Positions 12,295-29,007 of a stretch of DNA of 29,474 nucleotides are shown here, in pieces. The stretch is from positions 1 through 29,474 of the forward strand of contig JAGXLQ010000001.1 in NCBI GenBank assembly GCA_018334595.1, read 5' to 3'. The translations under genes were made by a program, and so were the position numbers. Origin of the DNA: Candidatus Bipolaricaulota bacterium (GTDB taxonomy: Bacteria; Bipolaricaulota; Bipolaricaulia; M55B111). A model generated the notes under the pieces. That model saw only the letters and a program-made list of their open reading frames with translations. It did no database searches and was not told where the DNA came from. Position 1 is the first letter of the stretch. The number at the start of each line of letters is the position of its first letter.

Positions 12295-12350
12295 AGATAT
12301 CGGTTCGAGTGTTTGAACAGCCCCATAATTGATAGAAGGTGAGGTATTTA

Positions 12351-14183
12351 ATGAATGATTCCCGGGAAAAGTATATCCCCGATCTGAGCGTGATAGTAGA
12401 CGGAGGCATCACTGAGCTAGTCTCAACGAGGCAGTTGCAAGGGGTAGAGGTTGTCGTACCCGAGGTCGTAGTCCTTGAACTGGAAGCCGAAGCGACGAAC
12501 GGTCAGGAAACTGGATACAAGGGTTTGAACGAGTTAAAGAAGCTGAGGGAATTCTGCGAGGAGGGTCTAATTGACCTGAAGTTCGAGGGCGCGGAGGACC
12601 TGAGTCCTGCCCCACCAGGCCCGAAGGGGTTGGATCCGGTAATCAGAGGCCTAGCTCAGCGACTTCACGGTACGCTGATTACGAACAACAAAATTCAAGC
12701 CTCAATTGCTCGCAGCAAGGGGTTGTCCGTGCAACTGCACCGGCCGCGAGGGAAGGATACGGAAAAGAGTTTAGAGGGGTTGGAACTGCTGGATTACTTC
12801 GATGAGACGACTATGTCCGTTCACCTTCGCGCGGATACGGTACCACGCGCCAAGATGGGTACACCGGATTCGGTCCAACTCGAGTCGATAAGCGAAAAGA
12901 AGCTCAGTTCTGAGCGACTGGAACAGCTGACTGAAGAAATAGTTGAGGTTGCTGATGTCCACCCTGCCGGCTTTATCGAGATGGATTCGGGTGGCGCGTC
13001 GGTAGTTCAGCTGGGCAATATTCGTATAGCGATAGCCAAGCCGCCTTTTTCCGATGCGATAGAGATTACGGCTACCCGTCCGGTCAAGAAGACGACGATT
13101 GCCGACTACTCCTATTCCGAGCTCATAGAGAGCAGGTTACAGCAATCACACCGTGGCGTGCTGGTTGCCGGCGCTCCGGGGATGGGAAAATCAACTCTGG
13201 TGCAGGCTCTGTCGGAGTTCCTTCGGGATTCCGGTTGGATCGTCAAGACCATGGAAAAGCCTCGTGACCTGGACGTTTCTCCGGAGATAAGTCAGTACCG
13301 TGATTTGAACGGGGAGATGGCGGATACGGCGGAAATACTCCTGTTGACCCGGCCTGACTACACGATTTTTGATGAGATGAGGCAGACCTCCGACTTCGAG
13401 GTCTTTGCCGACCTCCGCATGTCGGGCGTTGGCCTGGTTGGGGTAGTTCACGCGACCAAGGCCATTGATTCGTTACAGCGCCTTGTGGGCAGGGTAGAAC
13501 TCGGAATGATCCCTCAAATCGTGGATACCGTTTTGCACGTGGATGGGGGAGATATCAAGAAGGTGTTCGACGTTGAGATGACTGTAAAGACACCATCAGG
13601 TATGGAGCAGGGTGACCTATCCAGGCCGGTCATCGAGGTCCGGGATTTCGAAACCGGAAGTCTGAGCTACGAGATCTATACGTTCGGAGAACAGGTAGTA
13701 GTCATTCCCCTGGAAGGCCAGGAGCAGAACAGAATCTGGGACTTTGCGACGTCGGGACTGGAGGATCAGCTGGCCCAGGAGTTGCCATTTGACTTCGACC
13801 TGGAAATAAGATCCAACAACCGTATAGCGATTTACGTGGCCGATCACCACGTACCCGCGGTCCTCGGTCATGGAGGGAAGAGGGTAGATGCCCTTGAAAA
13901 AAAGGTGGGACTTCACATTGACGTGAGGACCTTCGCCGAGAGAGAGAGTTCTTCGCCTACTTCACCTGACTTCCGGGTCAAAAATTCTGACGAGTACCTG
14001 CTGCTGAATTTTGACCCTTCCTTCAGCAACGAGGAGATAGAGATATCGATTAACGGGGAACGCGTCTTCTCCGGAGCGGTATCCAAGAAAGGACGGATTA
14101 AGCTGACCAAGGATACTCACCAGGCAAGACGGATAAAGAAGGCGCAACGTGAAGGGGATAAGATTACAGTCAACAAGCTCTAG
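12351..14183 (+). CDS. PIN domain - ATPase - KH domain protein (archaeal PINA / COG1855-like)
   Basis: PIN-like N-terminus (IPDLSVIVDG, VPEVVVLELE), Walker A GAPGMGKST, KTMEKPRDL, Walker B YTIFDEMR, GVGLVGVVHA, RVELGMIPQIVDT, KH GxxG (VLGHGGKRVDALEKKVGLHIDV). ATG 12351 follows GAGGT. Confidence 0.85.
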   Translation: MNDSREKYIPDLSVIVDGGITELVSTRQLQGVEVVVPEVVVLELEAEATNGQETGYKGLNELKKLREFCEEGLIDLKFEGAEDLSPAPPGPKGLDPVIRGLAQRLHGTLITNNKIQASIARSKGLSVQLHRPRGKDTEKSLEGLELLDYFDETTMSVHLRADTVPRAKMGTPDSVQLESISEKKLSSERLEQLTEEIVEVADVHPAGFIEMDSGGASVVQLGNIRIAIAKPPFSDAIEITATRPVKKTTIADYSYSELIESRLQQSHRGVLVAGAPGMGKSTLVQALSEFLRDSGWIVKTMEKPRDLDVSPEISQYRDLNGEMADTAEILLLTRPDYTIFDEMRQTSDFEVFADLRMSGVGLVGVVHATKAIDSLQRLVGRVELGMIPQIVDTVLHVDGGDIKKVFDVEMTVKTPSGMEQGDLSRPVIEVRDFETGSLSYEIYTFGEQVVVIPLEGQEQNRIWDFATSGLEDQLAQELPFDFDLEIRSNNRIAIYVADHHVPAVLGHGGKRVDALEKKVGLHIDVRTFAERESSSPTSPDFRVKNSDEYLLLNFDPSFSNEEIEISINGERVFSGAVSKKGRIKLTKDTHQARRIKKAQREGDKITVNKL

Positions 14184-14188
14184 GGCGG

Positions 14189-15658
14189 TTACCCCTTAAC
14201 GACTATTATCGGTTTGAGCTTGGCCACTTTTGGTGTCAGTCCATTGGTGTCGACAGAATCAACCACCCTGTCCACGTCCTTGTAAGCACCGGGAGCCTCC
14301 TCTGCCAGTCCGGGGTAGGAGTGCGATTTTACTACTATTCCCCTCGACCTGAGAGACGTCTCCACGTCCTCACCCCAGAATTTCGACTTGGCCTTCTTGC
14401 GAGACATCGCCCTCCCTGCACCGTGAATCCCGCTGCCGAACGTCATTTTCATTGCCGTCTCCGTTCCCCGTAGGACGTAGGAGGATGACCCCATCGTCCC
14501 CCCGACGAGTACCGGCCCGCCGACTCCTCTGTAGGCCTTGGGTAACTCTTTGCGCCCCGGCCCGAACGCCCGCGTGGCCCCCTTTCTGTGGACCAGTAAT
14601 CGTTGTTGGACTCCGTTCACGGTGTGGTCTTCGACCTTGGCGGTGTTGTGGCCCACTTCGTAGACGGTCCTTATCTCCTGTGGTGGGATGTCGACGACCC
14701 GTGAGAACCCCCGGCGTGCCAGTCCGGCCAGGACCTGGCGGTTGGCAAAGGCGCAGTTCATTCCACATCTCATGGCGCTCAGGTATTCTCTCCCCTCGGG
14801 GCTGTCTATCGGTGCGGATACCAACTCCCGTTCCTCGATCGGGAGGTCGTATTTTTTGCTGGCGTCCTTCAGTTTGGAGAGGTAGTCCTGCCCTATTTGA
14901 TGACCGAGGGCCCGGGAGCCCGTATGTATTGATATGACTATTTGACCCTCGTGTAAGCCGTAAGTGTCCCCGGCCTCCCGGTCGTAAATTTCCTTTACCT
15001 CCTGTACTTCCAGGTAGTGATTGCCTGAACCGAGGGTCCCCACCTGTTTAAATTGACGCTGTTTGGCGCGCCGGCTGACGTTTTTCGGGTCCGCTCCGTC
15101 GATCCGCCCGTTTTCCTCTACATATTCAAGGTCGTCTTCGATCCCGTAACCGATTTCCAACCCGAACCTAGCTCCCTGGACGAGCGCCTTATCTATCTCC
15201 TCGATCGAAAGGTTGATTTCGCCTTCGGACCCAAGTCCTGCGGGGACCGTCCTGTAAAGGGTGTCTGCCAGTTTGTCCTTGACCTTGGTTACGTCACGGA
15301 CTTCTAGAGGGGTCCTCAGTAAACGGACGCCGCAGTTGATGTCAAACCCCACGCCACCGGCAACGACTACTCCGTCCTCCACGTCGAATGCCCCTACGCC
15401 GCCAATCGGGAATCCATAACCGGGGTGGATGTCTGCCAGGCCGATGGACGCGGAGACGATACCCGGAAGGGAAGCCACGTTTATCAGTTGCTCCAGCGAA
15501 CTCCATTGGTCCTCTTGTCGATACTCAGCGAGGAGTCCTTTAGCGGAATCCCGGTCGACAAACAACCTGCCGGGAACGTTCATCTTCCCGAACTCCTCGA
15601 TTTCCCAGGTGTTCTTGTCCAGCTCCTTCAGACTAATCTCTTGTCCGTTCAACGTCAT
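14189..15658 (-). CDS. rtcB: RNA 2',3'-cyclic/3'-phosphate ligase RtcB, long archaeal/eukaryal-type form
   Basis: DIHPGYGFPIGG, GFDINCGVR, GTLGSGNHYLE, IHTGSR, HNTAK, HRKGATRA, HGAGR (nucleophile His), EEAPGAYKD, VVKG terminus. The true start may be TTG 15652, which has better spacing to GGAGG. Confidence 0.96.
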   Translation of the reverse strand: MTLNGQEISLKELDKNTWEIEEFGKMNVPGRLFVDRDSAKGLLAEYRQEDQWSSLEQLINVASLPGIVSASIGLADIHPGYGFPIGGVGAFDVEDGVVVAGGVGFDINCGVRLLRTPLEVRDVTKVKDKLADTLYRTVPAGLGSEGEINLSIEEIDKALVQGARFGLEIGYGIEDDLEYVEENGRIDGADPKNVSRRAKQRQFKQVGTLGSGNHYLEVQEVKEIYDREAGDTYGLHEGQIVISIHTGSRALGHQIGQDYLSKLKDASKKYDLPIEERELVSAPIDSPEGREYLSAMRCGMNCAFANRQVLAGLARRGFSRVVDIPPQEIRTVYEVGHNTAKVEDHTVNGVQQRLLVHRKGATRAFGPGRKELPKAYRGVGGPVLVGGTMGSSSYVLRGTETAMKMTFGSGIHGAGRAMSRKKAKSKFWGEDVETSLRSRGIVVKSHSYPGLAEEAPGAYKDVDRVVDSVDTNGLTPKVAKLKPIIVVKG

Positions 15659-15672
15659 ACCTCCCGATTTAT

Positions 15673-16098
15673 CTACACGTCAACCACGAATACGCACGAC
15701 CACTCGTCGGGGTCCGGACTCGTTACTTCCAGACCCTGGTAGGTAATTCCTTTTACCTCAGTACCGAGGGAATGCCTTGACGGATCGATCTCCTCCCCCC
15801 TCAGGCGCCCGTGCAGCGTCAATCTGTCTGCGGTTTTCTCTACCTCAAGGTCGAACTCGGAGTAAACCGTCATTTGCAGTTGGCTTAGGGAGAGCAACTC
15901 CCCTAACCACTCGTAAAGCAGATCCTCCTCGTCTTCGCCCTCTACTGTCAGTCGTTCTTCTGTTGACTTCCTTACTCCTTCCAGGTCGGCCATGAGGCTA
16001 AACAAGGCCCTTGCCGCGCTGGCAAGAAGGCCTGTAAAGGTTTGCGCCCGTGCCCGGACCCCGACGTCGGCGCCGTGATCCAGGTACTCGTAATTCAC
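15673..16098 (-). CDS. Archease (RtcB activator, SHS2 family)
   Basis: YEYLDHGADVG, EDLLYEWLGELL, EVKGITY, C-terminal VVDV. It lies 14 nt upstream of rtcB; its GTG start overlaps the thpR stop (GTGA). Confidence 0.92.
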   Translation of the reverse strand: MNYEYLDHGADVGVRARAQTFTGLLASAARALFSLMADLEGVRKSTEERLTVEGEDEEDLLYEWLGELLSLSQLQMTVYSEFDLEVEKTADRLTLHGRLRGEEIDPSRHSLGTEVKGITYQGLEVTSPDPDEWSCVFVVDV

Positions 16099-16667
16099 CT
16101 GTCCTCTCCTTGCAGGGGGAGTTTAAACAAGGGTGTGTAAACTGGTCCATCCCTTCTTAGTTCGCTTTCCATAAGCGTCAACTCGTCTATTTCCACCTCC
16201 CAGTTCTCTCCCACGGAAAAAGATTCGAGTTCTCGTCCCATTTCCTTGATCCTGCCATTATTTTTCTCCTTGGTCCTTCCCAGCGTGATATGAGGTATGT
16301 AGTCCCTCTCCTCCGGGTCGAAGCCCAGACCGGCCATCTCTTCCTCCAGGTCCGCGTATAGGGAGTGTATTTCCGCTGGCTCCGAACTGCTCCCAAGCCA
16401 GATGACTTTCGGGTAGCTTACTTTGGGAAAAGACCCAAGTTTGTCGATCTCCATGGTGAAGGCGGGGTTGTGGTCCGCGGGGGCCTTTGCCGCCTCCTCA
16501 ATTTCGTCTACGCGGGAGGGCTCCACCTCTCCGAGGAACTTGAGCGTTACATGAAGGTTGGCGGGGTCGACCCACTTTACGTATGCCGGTTGGTAGATAT
16601 CTTCGGATAGCTTTGCCATCCGTTTTCTTGTCTCTTCCGGGATTTCCAGACAAAAGAAGGTTCGCAT
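16095..16667 (-). CDS. thpR: RNA 2',3'-cyclic phosphodiesterase (2H phosphoesterase, ThpR/LigT family)
   Basis: MRTFFCL start, two HxT motifs (LHVTLKFLG, PHITLGR), GSFP, MESEL...GPVY. ATG 16667 is preceded by AGGTG. Confidence 0.92.
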   Translation of the reverse strand: MRTFFCLEIPEETRKRMAKLSEDIYQPAYVKWVDPANLHVTLKFLGEVEPSRVDEIEEAAKAPADHNPAFTMEIDKLGSFPKVSYPKVIWLGSSSEPAEIHSLYADLEEEMAGLGFDPEERDYIPHITLGRTKEKNNGRIKEMGRELESFSVGENWEVEIDELTLMESELRRDGPVYTPLFKLPLQGEDR

Positions 16668-16775
16668 TATTACCACCTGTTATTGATCAGAAACTATCAT
16701 CACTGGTAGTTACGGTATTGAATATGGTCGTAGGTTTCAACGTATTAACGGTTGGTGGATCAACTTTTGTGAGAT

Positions 16776-17040
16776 ACCATGCAACCCGCCTCGAAATTGC
16801 TTGCCTGGCGTTACCTGGGCAGTTAGCTCTGATCAAGCTACCTCCTGACACCCACAGAGGTCTATTTACCGCTGCTCCCTTCCAGGCCTGACGGGATTTG
16901 TAGACTTGTGCCGCAGAAGACTCGACCGTCAACACCACTTTTCCAGGTCCAGTCCCAAACAACCAACTCCTCAGCAGGCATATCGGCTCCCCTATAGCGG
17001 ATTGAGGAAACGGGGACCGCTAGCCCCCACCTAGCATGGC
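16776..17040 (-). ncRNA. ffs: Signal recognition particle RNA, large bacterial (Alu-domain-containing) type
   Basis: SRP54-binding helix CCCGUCAGGCCU-GGAA-GGGAGCAGCGGUA (16895-16867). The Alu domain has complementary loops AGCGG/CCGCU. Blocks AAGUGGUGUUGACG and GAGCUAACUGC...GUAACGC resemble Bacillus scRNA as I recall it. The terminal helix pairs 5' GCCAUGC with 3' GCAUGGU; about 265 nt. Confidence 0.93.
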
Positions 17041-17128
17041 TGGCGGAGGGGGTGGGATTTGAACCCACGGAACCTCTCGGTTCACCGGTACTCCAAACCG
17101 GCGGTTTTGGCCGCTCGCCCACCCCTCC
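17041..17128 (-). tRNA. tRNA-Ser (anticodon GGA), CCA encoded
   Basis: Acceptor GGAGGGG/CCCCTCC, discriminator G, CCA; anticodon stem CCGGT/ACCGG with loop TTGGAGT; long variable arm GAACC-GAGA-GGTTC; T arm GTGGG-TTCAAAT-CCCAC. Confidence 0.93.
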
Positions 17129-17152
17129 TTATTGTCTAATTTCTGCCGATAA

Positions 17153-17181
17153 AGGTTAAGCTAGAAAAGCCTCCCGTGCAA
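17153..17181 (-). promoter_or_regulatory. Promoter for tRNA-Ser/SRP RNA (and possibly thpR-archease-rtcB)
   Basis: TTGCAC (17181-17176), 17 nt, TAACCT (17158-17153), giving a leader of about 18 nt before the tRNA. Confidence 0.65.
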
Positions 17182-24923: not shown

Positions 24924-24951
24924 TTGAATATGGTTGTGATTGTGATATCAT
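24924..24951 (+). promoter_or_regulatory. Putative promoter for the hydrogenase-metVF operon
   Basis: TTGAAT (24924-24929), 16 nt, extended -10 TG-A-TATCAT (24943-24951); AGGAGG at 24964-24969. Confidence 0.45.
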
Positions 24952-24976: not shown

Positions 24977-25840
24977 TTGGATACCAAACAGGAATGTTGT
25001 TCTGTTATCTGGCTACAAGGCGCAACTTGCACCGGTTGTGCGATATCTTTAATGAATTCCAATTATCCCAAATTATCTAACCTACTCCTCGACGAGGTCG
25101 TCCCCGGGAAGTCAATTTCTTTGAAATTTATGGCCACGTTGATGGGAGCAACCGGTGAACTTGCCCTTGAAGTGTTAAGCCGCGCTGAAGCGGAAGGAGA
25201 TTATATTGTTGTGATGGAAGGGTCCGTACCCAAGGGCGAAGACGGGAAGTACTGTATGGTAGGAGAGAAGTCGGTTGCGGACCAACTCACGGAGGCTGCG
25301 CCGGGTGCAAAAGCGGTGGTAAGCATCGGGACCTGCTCCGCTTACGGGGGAATACCTGCCGGACAGCCGAACCCGACGGATGCTGTTTCGGCCGCCGAAC
25401 ACCTTGAGGCCGAGGGGATCGATACTCCCTGCCTCAACGTCCCCGGTTGTCCTCCTGAACCTAGCTGGTTTGTGGACAGCCTGGCGACGGTAATGTTGTT
25501 CGGTTTGCCCGGACCGGAGGACGTTGACGACGTCGGTCGGTTGAAGTCCGTCTACGGGGAGTTGATTCACGATAACTGTCCTCGAAGAGGGGACTTCCAG
25601 AATGGTCACTTTGCCAGGCACATAGGTGAAGAGGGTTGTCTGGCAGAGGTCGGCTGCAAAGGTCCGTACGCCAACGCCCCCTGCCCCAACAGAGGGTGGC
25701 ACGAAGGCCTTAACTGGGCAATAAAAAACAATCATCCCTGTATAGGGTGTGTGGAACCGGGCTTCCCCGACTTGATGGGGCCGTTTTTCGAGAAATTTGG
25801 CCCGGAGGAGTCCGAGGAGATGTACAGGAGGCTAAAGTGA
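24977..25840 (+). CDS. [NiFe]-hydrogenase small subunit (group 1-like, no Tat signal)
   Basis: VIWLQGATCTGC, GTCSAYGGIP, PGCPP (proximal cluster); HDNCPRR, GCLAEVGCKGP (distal); CP...W...HPCIGCVEPGFPD (medial). TTG 24977 is 7 nt after AGGAGG. Confidence 0.93.
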   Translation: MDTKQECCSVIWLQGATCTGCAISLMNSNYPKLSNLLLDEVVPGKSISLKFMATLMGATGELALEVLSRAEAEGDYIVVMEGSVPKGEDGKYCMVGEKSVADQLTEAAPGAKAVVSIGTCSAYGGIPAGQPNPTDAVSAAEHLEAEGIDTPCLNVPGCPPEPSWFVDSLATVMLFGLPGPEDVDDVGRLKSVYGELIHDNCPRRGDFQNGHFARHIGEEGCLAEVGCKGPYANAPCPNRGWHEGLNWAIKNNHPCIGCVEPGFPDLMGPFFEKFGPEESEEMYRRLK

Positions 25841-27351
25841 AACAGATTACCATAGATCCGGTAACGCGAATAGAGGGACACCTGAAGATAGAGACCGAAG
25901 TTGAAGGTAAAGAGGTCAAGTCTGCGCGGAGCAGCGGTACTCTGTTCAGGGGCTTCGAGCAGATACTGTCCGGGCGGGACCCGAGAGACGCCCAGAGAAT
26001 CACGCAGAGGGTTTGTGGGGTCTGCCCCACCGCTCACGCGACGGCTTCCTCATTGGCATTGGAAGATGCCTTTGGTATCAAGGATCAGGTGCCGGCCAAC
26101 GGTAGGTTGATCAAGAATATCATGCTTGGCGCCAACTTCATCCAGTCCCACGTGCTCCACTTTTACCACCTGGCGGCGTTGGATTATCTGAACCCCGAAC
26201 GCACTAAGGAGGTCACCGATTGTGGCCCTCAGGTTGACACGCTGGCAAACTTTCTTAGATCTACGGACGGTGCACCATTTACACCTCAATACGAGGGTGA
26301 CTATCGACTCGGGCCGGAGATAAGTACGGACCTCTGTCGGGACTACCTCGACGGGCTGGATATCAGAAAGAAGGCCCACGAACTACTAGCCTTATTCGGC
26401 GCGAAGATGCCCCACAATATGGGAACCGTTCCTGGAGGCTCGACGAGAAAACCCGACGTGGGGACCATCGAGAAAGCCGGAGCCCGATTGAAGGAGATAA
26501 AGTGTTTTATCGATAACAGATACCTACCCGGGGCCCTTGCTCTCGTCGAAGCCTACGACGACTACTTCCAGGTTGGTCGGGGTGTGGACACGTTCTTGGA
26601 ATACGGAGGTTTCTACCTCGATAACATTTTAGGGGCACCTCAGGATACCCCAGTTGGGTTGTTGGGAGGAGTCTTTAACCTGGAAAACTACAGCCTCGAG
26701 GAAGTTGATTTGAACGAGATAACGGAGGAGGTAACTCACTCCTGGTACGAAGACGCGACTACCGGTCATCCCACCGAGGCAAGGACTAGCCCCAGTGCCG
26801 ACAAGGAAGGAGCTTACTCCTGGGTCAAGGCACCAAGGTACGGGGATCGGCCATGCGAAGTGGGGCCCGCTGCCAGGATTATGATCAACTACAGCCGCGG
26901 CAACGAGTTCATCAAGGAGAAGATGGACGAGATTACGGGTAAACTGGACATCGAACTGAAAGACTGTGCTTCCGTAGCCGGGAGGCATCTGGCCCGGGCA
27001 CTTGAATGTAAGTACATTTCCGATCTCATGGGAGATTGGTTAGAGCAGCTGGAGCCAGGCGCGGAGTCGGTTGCAAAGTACGAGATGCCAGATGAAGGAA
27101 CCGGCGTCGGTGTAACCAGTGCCCCCCGAGGAACGCTGGGACACTGGATCGAGGTAAAGAACGGCGAGATCGAAAACTACCAGATGGTCGTGCCTACCAC
27201 CTGGAACGCTTCACCCAGGGACGGTCAGGGTAGACCCGGTCCAATCGAACAGGCTTTGATCGGTACGAGGATAGAGGACGGGGATAATCCGATCGAGGCT
27301 GCCAGGATAGTCCGTTCTTTCGATCCATGTATGGCCTGCGCGGTCCATTGA
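25837..27351 (+). CDS. [NiFe]-hydrogenase large subunit
   Basis: IDPVTRIEGH, L1 QRVCGVCPTAH, APRGTLGHW, VVPTTWN, L2 RSFDPCMACAVH-stop. The GTG start overlaps the small-subunit stop (GTGA) after AGGAG. Confidence 0.96.
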   Translation: MKQITIDPVTRIEGHLKIETEVEGKEVKSARSSGTLFRGFEQILSGRDPRDAQRITQRVCGVCPTAHATASSLALEDAFGIKDQVPANGRLIKNIMLGANFIQSHVLHFYHLAALDYLNPERTKEVTDCGPQVDTLANFLRSTDGAPFTPQYEGDYRLGPEISTDLCRDYLDGLDIRKKAHELLALFGAKMPHNMGTVPGGSTRKPDVGTIEKAGARLKEIKCFIDNRYLPGALALVEAYDDYFQVGRGVDTFLEYGGFYLDNILGAPQDTPVGLLGGVFNLENYSLEEVDLNEITEEVTHSWYEDATTGHPTEARTSPSADKEGAYSWVKAPRYGDRPCEVGPAARIMINYSRGNEFIKEKMDEITGKLDIELKDCASVAGRHLARALECKYISDLMGDWLEQLEPGAESVAKYEMPDEGTGVGVTSAPRGTLGHWIEVKNGEIENYQMVVPTTWNASPRDGQGRPGPIEQALIGTRIEDGDNPIEAARIVRSFDPCMACAVH

Positions 27352-27374
27352 CCTTGAAGGACAGGAGGTAAAAA

Positions 27375-28058
27375 ATGATATTATCTGAACCGAAGCCCTG
27401 GGAAGAGATAGAGGGTTATCTGGAAGGCGACGATTCCGTATTCTTGCTCGGCTGTGATGGGTGTGACGCTGCCACTGGAGACGGCGGTGCAGAGAGAGTT
27501 GGGGAACTATCGGGGAAGCTTGACGAAGGAGGATGGAACGTCACGGGTACGAAGGTAATCGAGTTCCTTTGCAACAAGGCATTGGCGGGGATGAAGCTCG
27601 CACGGATTTCTGACTTAATTGAGGAGAGCGATTCGCTGCTGGTCTCCTGTTGTGGTATTGGTGTTCAGGCGGTGAGCAAGCTTGTGGATAAGCAGGTGCA
27701 CCCCGCCAACGACACCGTATCCATGGGGGACTTCCACGGCACCTGGCCGTCAGAGGAAACCTGTAAGAGGTGTGGTGAATGCCTGCTGGAATATACGGGA
27801 GGAATATGTCCGCTGACGATGTGTGTTAAGGGCCTGTTAAATGGGGCCTGTGGCGGGTCTTACGAAGGGAAATGCGAGGTAGAGCCGGATCGACCCTGCG
27901 GCTGGGAGCTAATCTACGAGAGGCTCAAGGACGTGGGCCGGCTGGACCTGATTGAGGAGTACAACCCCCCCAAGGCTAGGCAGAAATACCAGTTCGGAGT
28001 CCCTATGGAAAACAGGAACTCGCTCTACTGGGCAATTGAGGCGGAGGAGGGAGAATGA
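27375..28058 (+). CDS. metV: Methylene-THF reductase partner subunit MetV (MTHFR C-terminal Cys-rich family)
   Basis: GCDGC, SCCGIGVQ, CKRCGECLLEYTGGICPLTMCVKGLLNGACGG, KCEV...PCGW; it directly precedes metF. Confidence 0.88.
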   Translation: MILSEPKPWEEIEGYLEGDDSVFLLGCDGCDAATGDGGAERVGELSGKLDEGGWNVTGTKVIEFLCNKALAGMKLARISDLIEESDSLLVSCCGIGVQAVSKLVDKQVHPANDTVSMGDFHGTWPSEETCKRCGECLLEYTGGICPLTMCVKGLLNGACGGSYEGKCEVEPDRPCGWELIYERLKDVGRLDLIEEYNPPKARQKYQFGVPMENRNSLYWAIEAEEGE

Positions 28059-28930
28059 GCACGCTAAAGGACAAACTTGAAGCCGGAGAGTTTGCGATTA
28101 CATGTGAGGCGGGCCCGCCCAAGGGAGTAGACCTCGAGAACGAACTCAAGGAGGCGGAGGAGATCGCAGGCCTGATCGACGCGTTTAACGTCACCGACCT
28201 GCAGTCTTCCGCCATGCGGATGAGTTCAGTGGCCATGTGCAGACTGCTTGAGGAAAGGGGCCTGGAGACCGTCTACCAGATGACCTGCCGTGATAGGAAC
28301 AGGCTCGCTCTCCAGTCGTCCCTGCTTGGTGCCTGGGCACTGGGGATGGAGAACGTCCTGGCGTTGACCGGTGACTACACGACGCTCGGAGATCACCCCG
28401 ACGCGATGCCGGTATTTGACCTGGACTCGATCCAACTGTTAGAGACCATCGAGAGGTTGAACGGAGGAGAGGACTTGGTCGGAAACGAACTGAAGGGGTC
28501 TCCTCAGTTCTTTCCGGGCGCGGCCGCCAACCCTGGAGCCGATCCCCTTAAGCCGCAGATACTGAAGAGCAGGATGAAGGCCGATCACGGCGCCCGATTC
28601 TTCCAAACTCAGGCAGTTTACGATTCGGACGTATTTGCAAAGTTCATGGAAGAACTGAGGGACGCCGGCGTGGAGACCCCTGTAATGGTCGGTATCCTCC
28701 CGCTCAAGTCGGCGGGGATGGCCAGATTCATGGACGCCAACATCGCGGGGGTAGTAATTCCGGACGAGGTCATCAAGGAACTGACCGATGCCTCCGATAC
28801 CGTTCAGAAGAGTCTTGAGATCTGTTCCCGAGTGATAAACGAAACGGCAGACCTCTGTGAGGGAGTCCATTTGATGCCGATGGGATGGGAGGAGTACGTA
28901 CCGGACATTCTTGACGGGACGGACCTTTAA
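28055..28930 (+). CDS. metF: 5,10-methylenetetrahydrofolate reductase, flavin subunit MetF (MetV-associated type)
   Basis: GEFAITCEAGPPKG, NVTD...MRMSS, YQMTCRDRNR, LALTGD, FQTQAVYD, GILPLKS; ATGA overlap with metV. Confidence 0.93.
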   Translation: MSTLKDKLEAGEFAITCEAGPPKGVDLENELKEAEEIAGLIDAFNVTDLQSSAMRMSSVAMCRLLEERGLETVYQMTCRDRNRLALQSSLLGAWALGMENVLALTGDYTTLGDHPDAMPVFDLDSIQLLETIERLNGGEDLVGNELKGSPQFFPGAAANPGADPLKPQILKSRMKADHGARFFQTQAVYDSDVFAKFMEELRDAGVETPVMVGILPLKSAGMARFMDANIAGVVIPDEVIKELTDASDTVQKSLEICSRVINETADLCEGVHLMPMGWEEYVPDILDGTDL

Positions 28931-28973: not shown

Positions 28974-29007
28974 ATAACGGTCGACGGGGTGACTCGTCGA
29001 CCGTTAT
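28974..29007. terminator. Probable bidirectional terminator between metF and the histidine kinase
   Basis: Perfect 13-bp inverted repeat ATAACGGTCGACG (28974-28986) / CGTCGACCGTTAT (28995-29007) between convergent genes. Confidence 0.75.

Follow-up and report, generated by a model that had tools for sequence, protein, structure and literature searches.

A [NiFe]-hydrogenase operon with metV and metF in Bipolaricaulota: a candidate H2-linked methylene-tetrahydrofolate reductase system

Of the steps in the Wood-Ljungdahl pathway, the supply of electrons to methylene-tetrahydrofolate (methylene-THF) reductase (MTHFR) is the one about which least is settled, and the energy balance of acetogens depends on it. 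Whether H2 can serve as the electron donor through a dedicated hydrogenase is the question raised by a locus on contig JAGXLQ010000001.1 of a Candidatus Bipolaricaulota bacterium (assembly GCA_018334595.1), which was analysed over its full length of 29,474 nucleotides (henceforth the window; contig C50 of a 1.5-Mb metagenome-assembled genome (MAG) of 236 contigs and 75% completeness). The best protein hits likewise assign the genome to Candidatus Bipolaricaulota. At positions 24977-28930, the genes for the small and the large subunit of a [NiFe]-hydrogenase are followed by metV and metF, all four in the same direction (gene calls and Pfam/NCBIfam profiles). We consider it likely that these genes encode one cytoplasmic, reversible H2:methylene-THF oxidoreductase system, in which a hydrogenase of group 1a ancestry has acquired MetV as its partner, and H2 is probably coupled directly to the folate step. 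We infer physical association of the proteins, direct electron transfer (from gene context) and the direction of the reaction.

The operon and its conservation

The features of the locus are as follows.

24924..24951, plus strand: candidate sigma-70-like promoter, TTGAAT-16-TATCAT with TG (consensus scan; pattern match only)
24977..25840, plus strand: [NiFe]-hydrogenase small subunit, 287 amino acids (PF01058 and PF14720; TTG start, AGGAGG 7 nt upstream)
25837..27351, plus strand: [NiFe]-hydrogenase large subunit, 504 amino acids (PF00374; NF033181 at 627 bits, cut-off 600; GTG start)
27375..28058, plus strand: MetV, Fe-S subunit of a MetVF-type MTHFR, 227 amino acids (PF12225, 1e-31)
28055..28930, plus strand: MetF, flavin-binding catalytic MTHFR subunit, 291 amino acids (PF02219, 2e-39)
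28974..29007, no strand assigned: 15-pair hairpin, likely a bidirectional terminator (RNA fold)

The four genes are translationally coupled. The two hydrogenase genes share a GTGA overlap (25837-25840), the gap of 23 nt between the large-subunit gene and metV (27352-27374) contains an AGGAGG, and metV and metF share an ATGA overlap (28055-28058). The hairpin at 28974-29007, on which metF and a histidine-kinase gene converge with their stop codons on either side, consists of 13 Watson-Crick pairs followed by a G.U and a G-C pair; its region of 91 nt folded at -29.1 kcal/mol (z = -2.9), and none of 200 shuffles folded as well. The flanks are unrelated to the operon (groES/groEL upstream and the histidine kinase downstream, both on the minus strand), and no redox genes beyond the four were found in the unit. 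The original prediction, which had been made from the letters of the window, had described a tight four-gene unit with these overlaps and this gap, a closing 13-bp hairpin and no further redox partner in the unit; each of these features was found again, and the hairpin was extended to its present length.

Conservation was assessed within and outside the phylum. Homologues of the large subunit were detected in 58 of the 184 Bipolaricaulota genomes searched, and at the best 30 of these loci metV/metF always stood beside a hydrogenase whose small subunit has no twin-arginine translocation (Tat) signal (30/30), i.e., downstream at 28 loci and divergently upstream at two f8 loci. The same block was present at 16 of 20 weaker loci for which wider flanks were used (46/50 in total). 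Two of the four exceptions have a small subunit with a twin-arginine motif and a large subunit of only 40% identity, and the other two (L070 and L076) form a sister clade of the MetVF-linked hydrogenases and have no metVF. At L070:3537-8198 (G051), the small subunit carries the Tat motif SRRKFLK, and HycI, a small three-haem c-type cytochrome and a NapC/NirT-type cytochrome are encoded nearby; at L076 (G093), the two points checked were the presence of HycI and the missing metVF. The L070-type clade is presumed to represent the ancestral periplasmic state.

Outside the phylum, species-representative genomes were scanned, which yielded 80 named loci. A metV gene was located within 2.5 kb of the large-subunit gene at 59 of them, with a Tat-less small subunit verified in 54 of the 59, and all nine loci with a Tat motif (9/9) were without metVF. 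The MetVF-linked loci were labelled as Dehalococcoidia, Anaerolineae, Desulfobacteraceae/Deltaproteobacteria, Thermodesulfovibrionales, Elusimicrobia, Planctomycetia and Poribacteria; overall, the block was kept down to approximately 45-50% identity across the Bipolaricaulota families and recurred under at least six other phylum-level labels. Its setting differed between contigs, e.g., cdhD-acsE-fhs-folD-SSU-LSU-hycI-metV-metF in a Dehalococcoidia MAG, HdrA-like/MvhD-metV-SSU-LSU-kinase-metF in Anaerolineae and fdh-like-SSU-LSU-metV-metF in a contig labelled 'Poribacteria' (SSU and LSU, small- and large-subunit genes). In the family of the window (f1), it is the four genes alone that stay together: groESL and the kinase flank them within the genus and not in genera g2 and g3, and the adjacent histidine kinase was hence rejected as a conserved partner. 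In genus g3, a gene for an FTCD_C/FchA-type methenyl-THF cyclohydrolase was observed convergent with metF (L176:3769-4434, G068).

A search for large-subunit genes beside metV-metF had been suggested together with the original prediction, and the notion that the adjacency might be unique to this genome clearly fails in light of its recurrence across phyla. The hydrogenase-MetVF system is thus real and widespread, a putative variant of the MetVF-type MTHFR, and not a first sighting. The adjacency was reported in one sentence for Bipolaricaulia of the Great Salt Lake, where the same inference was drawn (PMC11287216, FEMS Microbiol Ecol 2024), and this was the sole paper in which our literature search found metVF and hysAB together. 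The arrangement is not mentioned for Acetothermia from Oman (PMC9586279), Bipolaricaulota from Turkish geothermal sites (PMC9992828), deep-sea Chloroflexi (PMC5736913) or Actinobacteria from Hakuba (PMC7325909). The statement that it was not known to have been described thus needs to be amended by that one sentence and holds for the published MTHFR classification, from which it is absent.

Elsewhere in the window, an RtcB-archease-ThpR (LigT) operon (14189-17181) and a PIN/ATPase-like gene after dnaE-cofD(yvcK) (12339-14183) were observed, both in agreement with the Pfam calls.

Ancestry and architecture of the hydrogenase

A Tat signal peptide on the small subunit is excluded by a stop codon in frame, 19 codons 5' of the TTG start, and the subunit also has no C-terminal anchor; with no Tat signal, the hydrogenase is predicted to be cytoplasmic. 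The best solved relatives of the small subunit are the mature small subunits of group 1a [NiFeSe] enzymes, to which it aligned from residue 8 of both sequences, and its N-terminus corresponds to the start of the mature chain in the periplasmic enzymes of Desulfomicrobium baculatum (1CC1_S) and D. vulgaris. The ligands of the proximal (C18, C21, C120 and C158), the distal (H198, C201, C221 and C227) and the medial cluster (C236, C255 and C258) were invariant in 36 relatives. Position 248 is an alanine, leaving the medial site with three cysteines, i.e., without the fourth medial cysteine of [NiFeSe] enzymes.

The large subunit carries the nickel-ligand motifs RVCGVC (C60 and C63) and DPCMAC (C498 and C501), and Cys498 is encoded by TGT/TGC and not by TGA, which makes it a cysteine and not a selenocysteine. 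With no selenocysteine in DPUxxC and no fourth medial cysteine, the enzyme does not belong to the [NiFeSe] (Hys) subtype. Among solved structures, the best matches of the large subunit were 4KL8 and 1CC1 (426 and 424 bits), followed by group 1b (approximately 385), Hyd-2 (298), Hyd-1 (288) and Huc (219), which ranks group 1a ahead of 1b, 1e, 1c, 1d, 2a and 1h. Periplasmic group 1a enzymes (D. baculatum 1CC1/4KL8; D. vulgaris Hildenborough 2WPN) are hence the best match for both subunits and have the same active-site motifs and the same proximal and distal ligands; the homologues from the Great Salt Lake were likewise reported as 'group 1a' (PMC11287216). The enzyme of the window differs from them in being Tat-less, in having cysteine in place of selenocysteine and in its three-cysteine medial site (Ala248), and its electron partner would be MetV, where theirs is cytochrome c3. 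It further lacks the large-subunit extension that an endopeptidase of the HycI/HybD type removes in group 1a: the large subunit ends exactly at His504 of DPCMACAVH. No protease gene was found in the operon, and the sole HycI homologue of the genome sits with a group 3b-like hydrogenase on contig C233; HypD, which acts in maturation, is present in the genome.

A maximum-likelihood tree of 52 large subunits resolved a Tat-type outgroup, a clade with extension and hycI (f8, f9, f11 and other phyla) and an extension-less clade (support 97/97) composed of family f1, in which the protein ends in ...AVH, and family f2, in which it ends in ...AVQ. The C-terminus of the window protein is of the type common to all 13 f1 loci (13/13). 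The f2-clade proteins (loci L057-L067 and L071-L074) end in DPCLACAVQ followed directly by the stop in 13 of 14 tree sequences (L065 ends in His), i.e., they have glutamine in place of the otherwise conserved terminal histidine, and no extension. According to the tree, the protease-cleaved tail and the operon hycI were lost in an ancestor shared by f1 and f2, and again in one f9 genome. The f2 operons have the order SSU-LSU-metV-metF, directly followed by fhs. As a side observation, nuoE/nuoF-like genes lie beside the small-subunit gene in at least seven f2 operons, mostly on the opposite strand.

A Tat-less small subunit and a large subunit without extension are also what is found in the regulatory hydrogenases of group 2b (HoxBC/HupUV), and a histidine-kinase gene lies immediately downstream of the operon. 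In the Anaerolineae loci, genes for a kinase and two response regulators stand among those of the block. The hydrogenase could thus be an H2 sensor that controls metVF via the neighbouring kinase, which we regard as extremely unlikely. Its sequence affiliation is with catalytic group 1a and not with group 2, most of the clade keeps both the extension and the HycI protease, and the kinase, which is convergent with the operon, is absent beside it in other genera of the family and is not a conserved neighbour. The hydrogenase genes are, moreover, stoichiometrically coupled to an enzyme and not to a signalling pathway. Sensory hydrogenases have bulkier residues at two gas-channel positions; here, the residue between the two N-terminal cysteines is valine and the residue after HFYH is leucine.

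Electron transfer from the hydrogenase to MetVF

MetV is the candidate partner to which a cytoplasmic hydrogenase of this ancestry could deliver electrons. Twelve of its cysteines (C27, C30, C66, C93, C130, C133, C136, C145, C150, C159, C167 and C175) were invariant in 45 hydrogenase-linked MetV sequences, and the motif NGACGG is present; the marks of the MetV family are an NGPCGG motif and two [4Fe4S] sites (PMC8515935). MetF matched the MTHFR half of NF006396 at 239 bits and MTHFRs of the PDB at 3e-11. The pair therefore has the features of the MetVF type, i.e., the MTHFR domain, PF12225, NGxCGG, the conserved cysteines, and metV upstream of and overlapping metF. No solved MetV structure was found. 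An AlphaFold model based on 32 sequences (predicted local distance difference test 77) gave a confident alpha/beta N-domain, and a comparison with PDB folds returned no meaningful match (best E approximately 0.01, unrelated receptors); since the cysteine-rich half was poorly modelled and no fold matched, the model was uninformative on docking.

The biochemistry of the described 2S type fits MetV as the port of electron entry. Purified 2S-type MetFV of Clostridium ljungdahlii cannot use NAD(P)H; ferredoxin, flavodoxin or thioredoxin, free and in reduced form, act as its low-potential donors, and the electrons enter at the Fe-S clusters of MetV (PMC8515935). As in the window, its MetV (NGxCGG) is encoded upstream of and overlapping MetF, and there is no NAD(P)H subunit. 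In the window, however, metV-metF is translationally coupled to a pair of hydrogenase genes, an association kept across phyla, and the predicted donor is H2 via a dedicated hydrogenase instead of free reduced ferredoxin. The 6S type of Moorella thermoacetica (HdrABC-MvhD-MetFV) and the 3S type of Acetobacterium woodii (RnfC2-MetFV) also consist of a MetFV core and an adjacent input module, but the input module here is a [NiFe]-hydrogenase heterodimer with H2, not NADH, as the predicted donor, and no HdrA, MvhD or RnfC2 genes were found in the window operon, which sets it apart from both. The published types comprise the E. coli type, 2S, 3S, 6S and a proposed NuoEFG 'X' type, and a hydrogenase-linked class is not among them (PMC8515935).

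In the proposed system, a hydrogenase of group 1a ancestry would have lost Tat export, and MetV would replace the periplasmic cytochrome c as its electron partner. In a complex of the heterotetramer type, electrons from H2 at the [NiFe] site would pass through the proximal [4Fe-4S], the medial three-cysteine and the His-ligated distal [4Fe-4S] cluster, and the latter would hand them to the Fe-S clusters of MetV, from where they would reach the flavin of MetF and methylene-THF. In the H2-oxidising direction, the standard free energy computed from E0' values of -414 and -200 mV is approximately -41 kJ/mol. A soluble hydrogenase passing electrons directly to MetV had been part of the original prediction, and the conserved Tat-less block supports it, with gene context as the ground on which it stands.

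The four proteins might instead be co-expressed and not wired, the hydrogenase reducing a diffusible carrier (ferredoxin-like or another small redox protein) that in turn reduces MetVF. We consider this improbable, although the C. ljungdahlii enzyme works with exactly such free carriers (PMC8515935) and operon membership by itself is no proof of a complex. The block contains no conserved carrier gene, the small subunit has lost its usual cytochrome partner, MetV is the sole Fe-S protein that is always adjacent, and the adjacency persists despite varied gene order (metV before the small-subunit gene in Anaerolineae; divergent in the two f8 loci). In addition, low-potential ferredoxin is poorly reduced by H2 at the pressures found in the environment.

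The direct wiring of a cytoplasmic [NiFe]-hydrogenase to a terminal reductase in C1 metabolism, as proposed here, has a precedent in MvhAGD-HdrABC of methanogens. The methanogen hydrogenase belongs to group 3c and the complex bifurcates via the HdrA flavin, whereas the hydrogenase of the window is of group 1 ancestry and no obvious bifurcating flavoprotein is part of the unit. By analogy to MvhAGD-HdrABC and to the 6S-type MTHFR, the four proteins could nonetheless be the core of a larger flavin-based bifurcating complex, e.g., with HdrA-MvhD, that couples the oxidation of H2 to both exergonic methylene-THF reduction and endergonic ferredoxin reduction and recovers energy otherwise lost. The window genome encodes an HdrA-MvhD fusion of 797 amino acids, standing alone on contig C139 (L055:6180-8573), and Anaerolineae loci have a large HdrA-like gene and MvhD directly upstream of metV-SSU-LSU. 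We give this possibility very little weight: the fusion gene is unlinked to the operon, the conserved unit in f1 and most families comprises four or five genes without an HdrA, NuoF or Etf module, and the NuoE/F-like genes found near f2 loci point away from the operon and do not occur at every locus.

Direction of the reaction and metabolic setting

If hydrogenase and MetVF are directly wired, the direction in which the system runs is the next question. Acetyl-CoA synthase (ACS; PF03598) was found in 43 of the 54 other Bipolaricaulota genomes with the hydrogenase-MetVF block and in 36 of 129 without it (in family f2, 17 genomes had both and 27 had neither, and the block alone and ACS alone were each seen in 3), counts that overstate independence, as the genomes are related and incomplete, and that are suggestive and not a statistical test. 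The position of the block among Wood-Ljungdahl genes and its co-occurrence with ACS in most lineages fit H2-driven formation of methyl-THF as the putative role.

The relatedness of these genomes weakens the counts, and further points weigh against the proposed system. With direct transfer from H2 to methylene-THF, none of the approximately 41 kJ/mol would be conserved, which would be unexpected in energy-limited anaerobes. For the role and direction in this organism in particular, neither the window MAG (75% complete) nor its nearest congener G069 (87% complete) yielded ACS, and the genome contains two MetV/MetF sets besides that of the window as well as the stand-alone HdrA-MvhD. A further MetV, truncated at the end of the contig and sharing 40% identity with that of the window, adjoins a FocA-type formate/nitrite transporter on contig C119 (L054:1-1528). 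Contig C230 (L009:1-1509) encodes a fused MetF-MetV of at least 502 amino acids, cut by the contig start and followed by moaC, MOSC, mog, moaA, two moeA and mobA genes, with a convergent molybdopterin oxidoreductase, possibly a formate dehydrogenase, alongside. Contig C54 (L011:7-4973) carries an MvhA-like large subunit, then HdrC, HdrB, an Fe-S protein and a fumarate-reductase-like flavoprotein.

The absence of ACS was followed up by synteny. No carbonyl-branch genes were found in the 75% complete window genome by tblastn with CdhD/AcsE of Dehalococcoidia and by PF03598, while Fhs and FolD are present. The congener G070 does have ACS, which occurs in 12 of the 18 family genomes; in G070, a heliorhodopsin-UDG-TPR block is followed by cooC-acsB-cdhD-RACo (L077). 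In the window genome, the same block on contig C45 (L091:873-1664, heliorhodopsin) is followed by unrelated oxidoreductase and sugar genes, so that at this syntenic position there is no ACS cluster. Of the genome check suggested at the outset, extra MetV/MetF, Hdr/MvhD, Fhs and FolD were accordingly found, whereas ACS was not found in this 75% complete MAG.

The genome is instead rich in genes for methyl transfer. It encodes at least eight MttB-superfamily methyltransferases, and contig C215 (L088:1043-8381) carries GntR-mttB-mttB next to an OpuA-type glycine-betaine ATP-binding cassette transporter (ATPase, permease and two OpuAC); across the family, 17 of 18 genomes have 1-12 MttB genes. Recoding of in-frame stops in MttB matches was considered and dropped, as the stop in the window genome is the codon before the start of the open reading frame. 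The MttB genes, the betaine importer cluster and the family-wide distribution mark the lineage as a predicted quaternary-amine methylotroph, in which methyl-THF would be a product of demethylation, and with methyl-THF from this source its oxidation with H2 as the sink becomes a serious option.

The same complex may accordingly run mainly in reverse here, oxidising methyl-THF from corrinoid-dependent demethylation of betaine or methylamines and releasing the electrons as H2. Such an alternative had been raised in the original prediction for betaine methyl groups and gains support from the MttB genes, the betaine transporter and the failure to find ACS. It is also favoured by the Fhs and FolD genes, by FocA beside the second MetV and the molybdopterin oxidoreductase beside the fused MetF-MetV, and by the salt-lake metagenome from which the genome derives (public runs containing the sequence are salt-lake and hypersaline-mat metagenomes). 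Nevertheless, we regard predominant operation in reverse as rather unlikely. The reaction would be uphill by approximately 41 kJ/mol under standard conditions and, according to our own calculation, lowering H2 to 1 Pa would not suffice to make it downhill without a high methyl/methylene ratio as well; it would be feasible only where partners hold H2 very low. Furthermore, ACS could be unassembled in a genome of this completeness, given its presence in two thirds of the family, and the block tracks ACS across the phylum, in line with the reductive direction.

A more far-reaching version, which we consider unlikely, is that HysSL-MetVF constitutes a sixth, H2-linked class of MTHFR that in this organism works backwards as a methyl-THF:proton oxidoreductase or recruits the orphan HdrA-MvhD for bifurcation. 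If it ran backwards, methyl groups of quaternary amines would be oxidised with H2 as the electron sink in a betaine-demethylating halophile that apparently lacks ACS. The extension-less large subunit would provide a natural example of maturation without a C-terminal protease in an enzyme of the group 1 type. Direct wiring of a hydrogenase to MetVF would, if true, represent a distinct solution to electron supply outside the published MTHFR types, in a system that is widespread in uncultured Bipolaricaulota, Chloroflexota and other anaerobes of subsurface and hypersaline environments.

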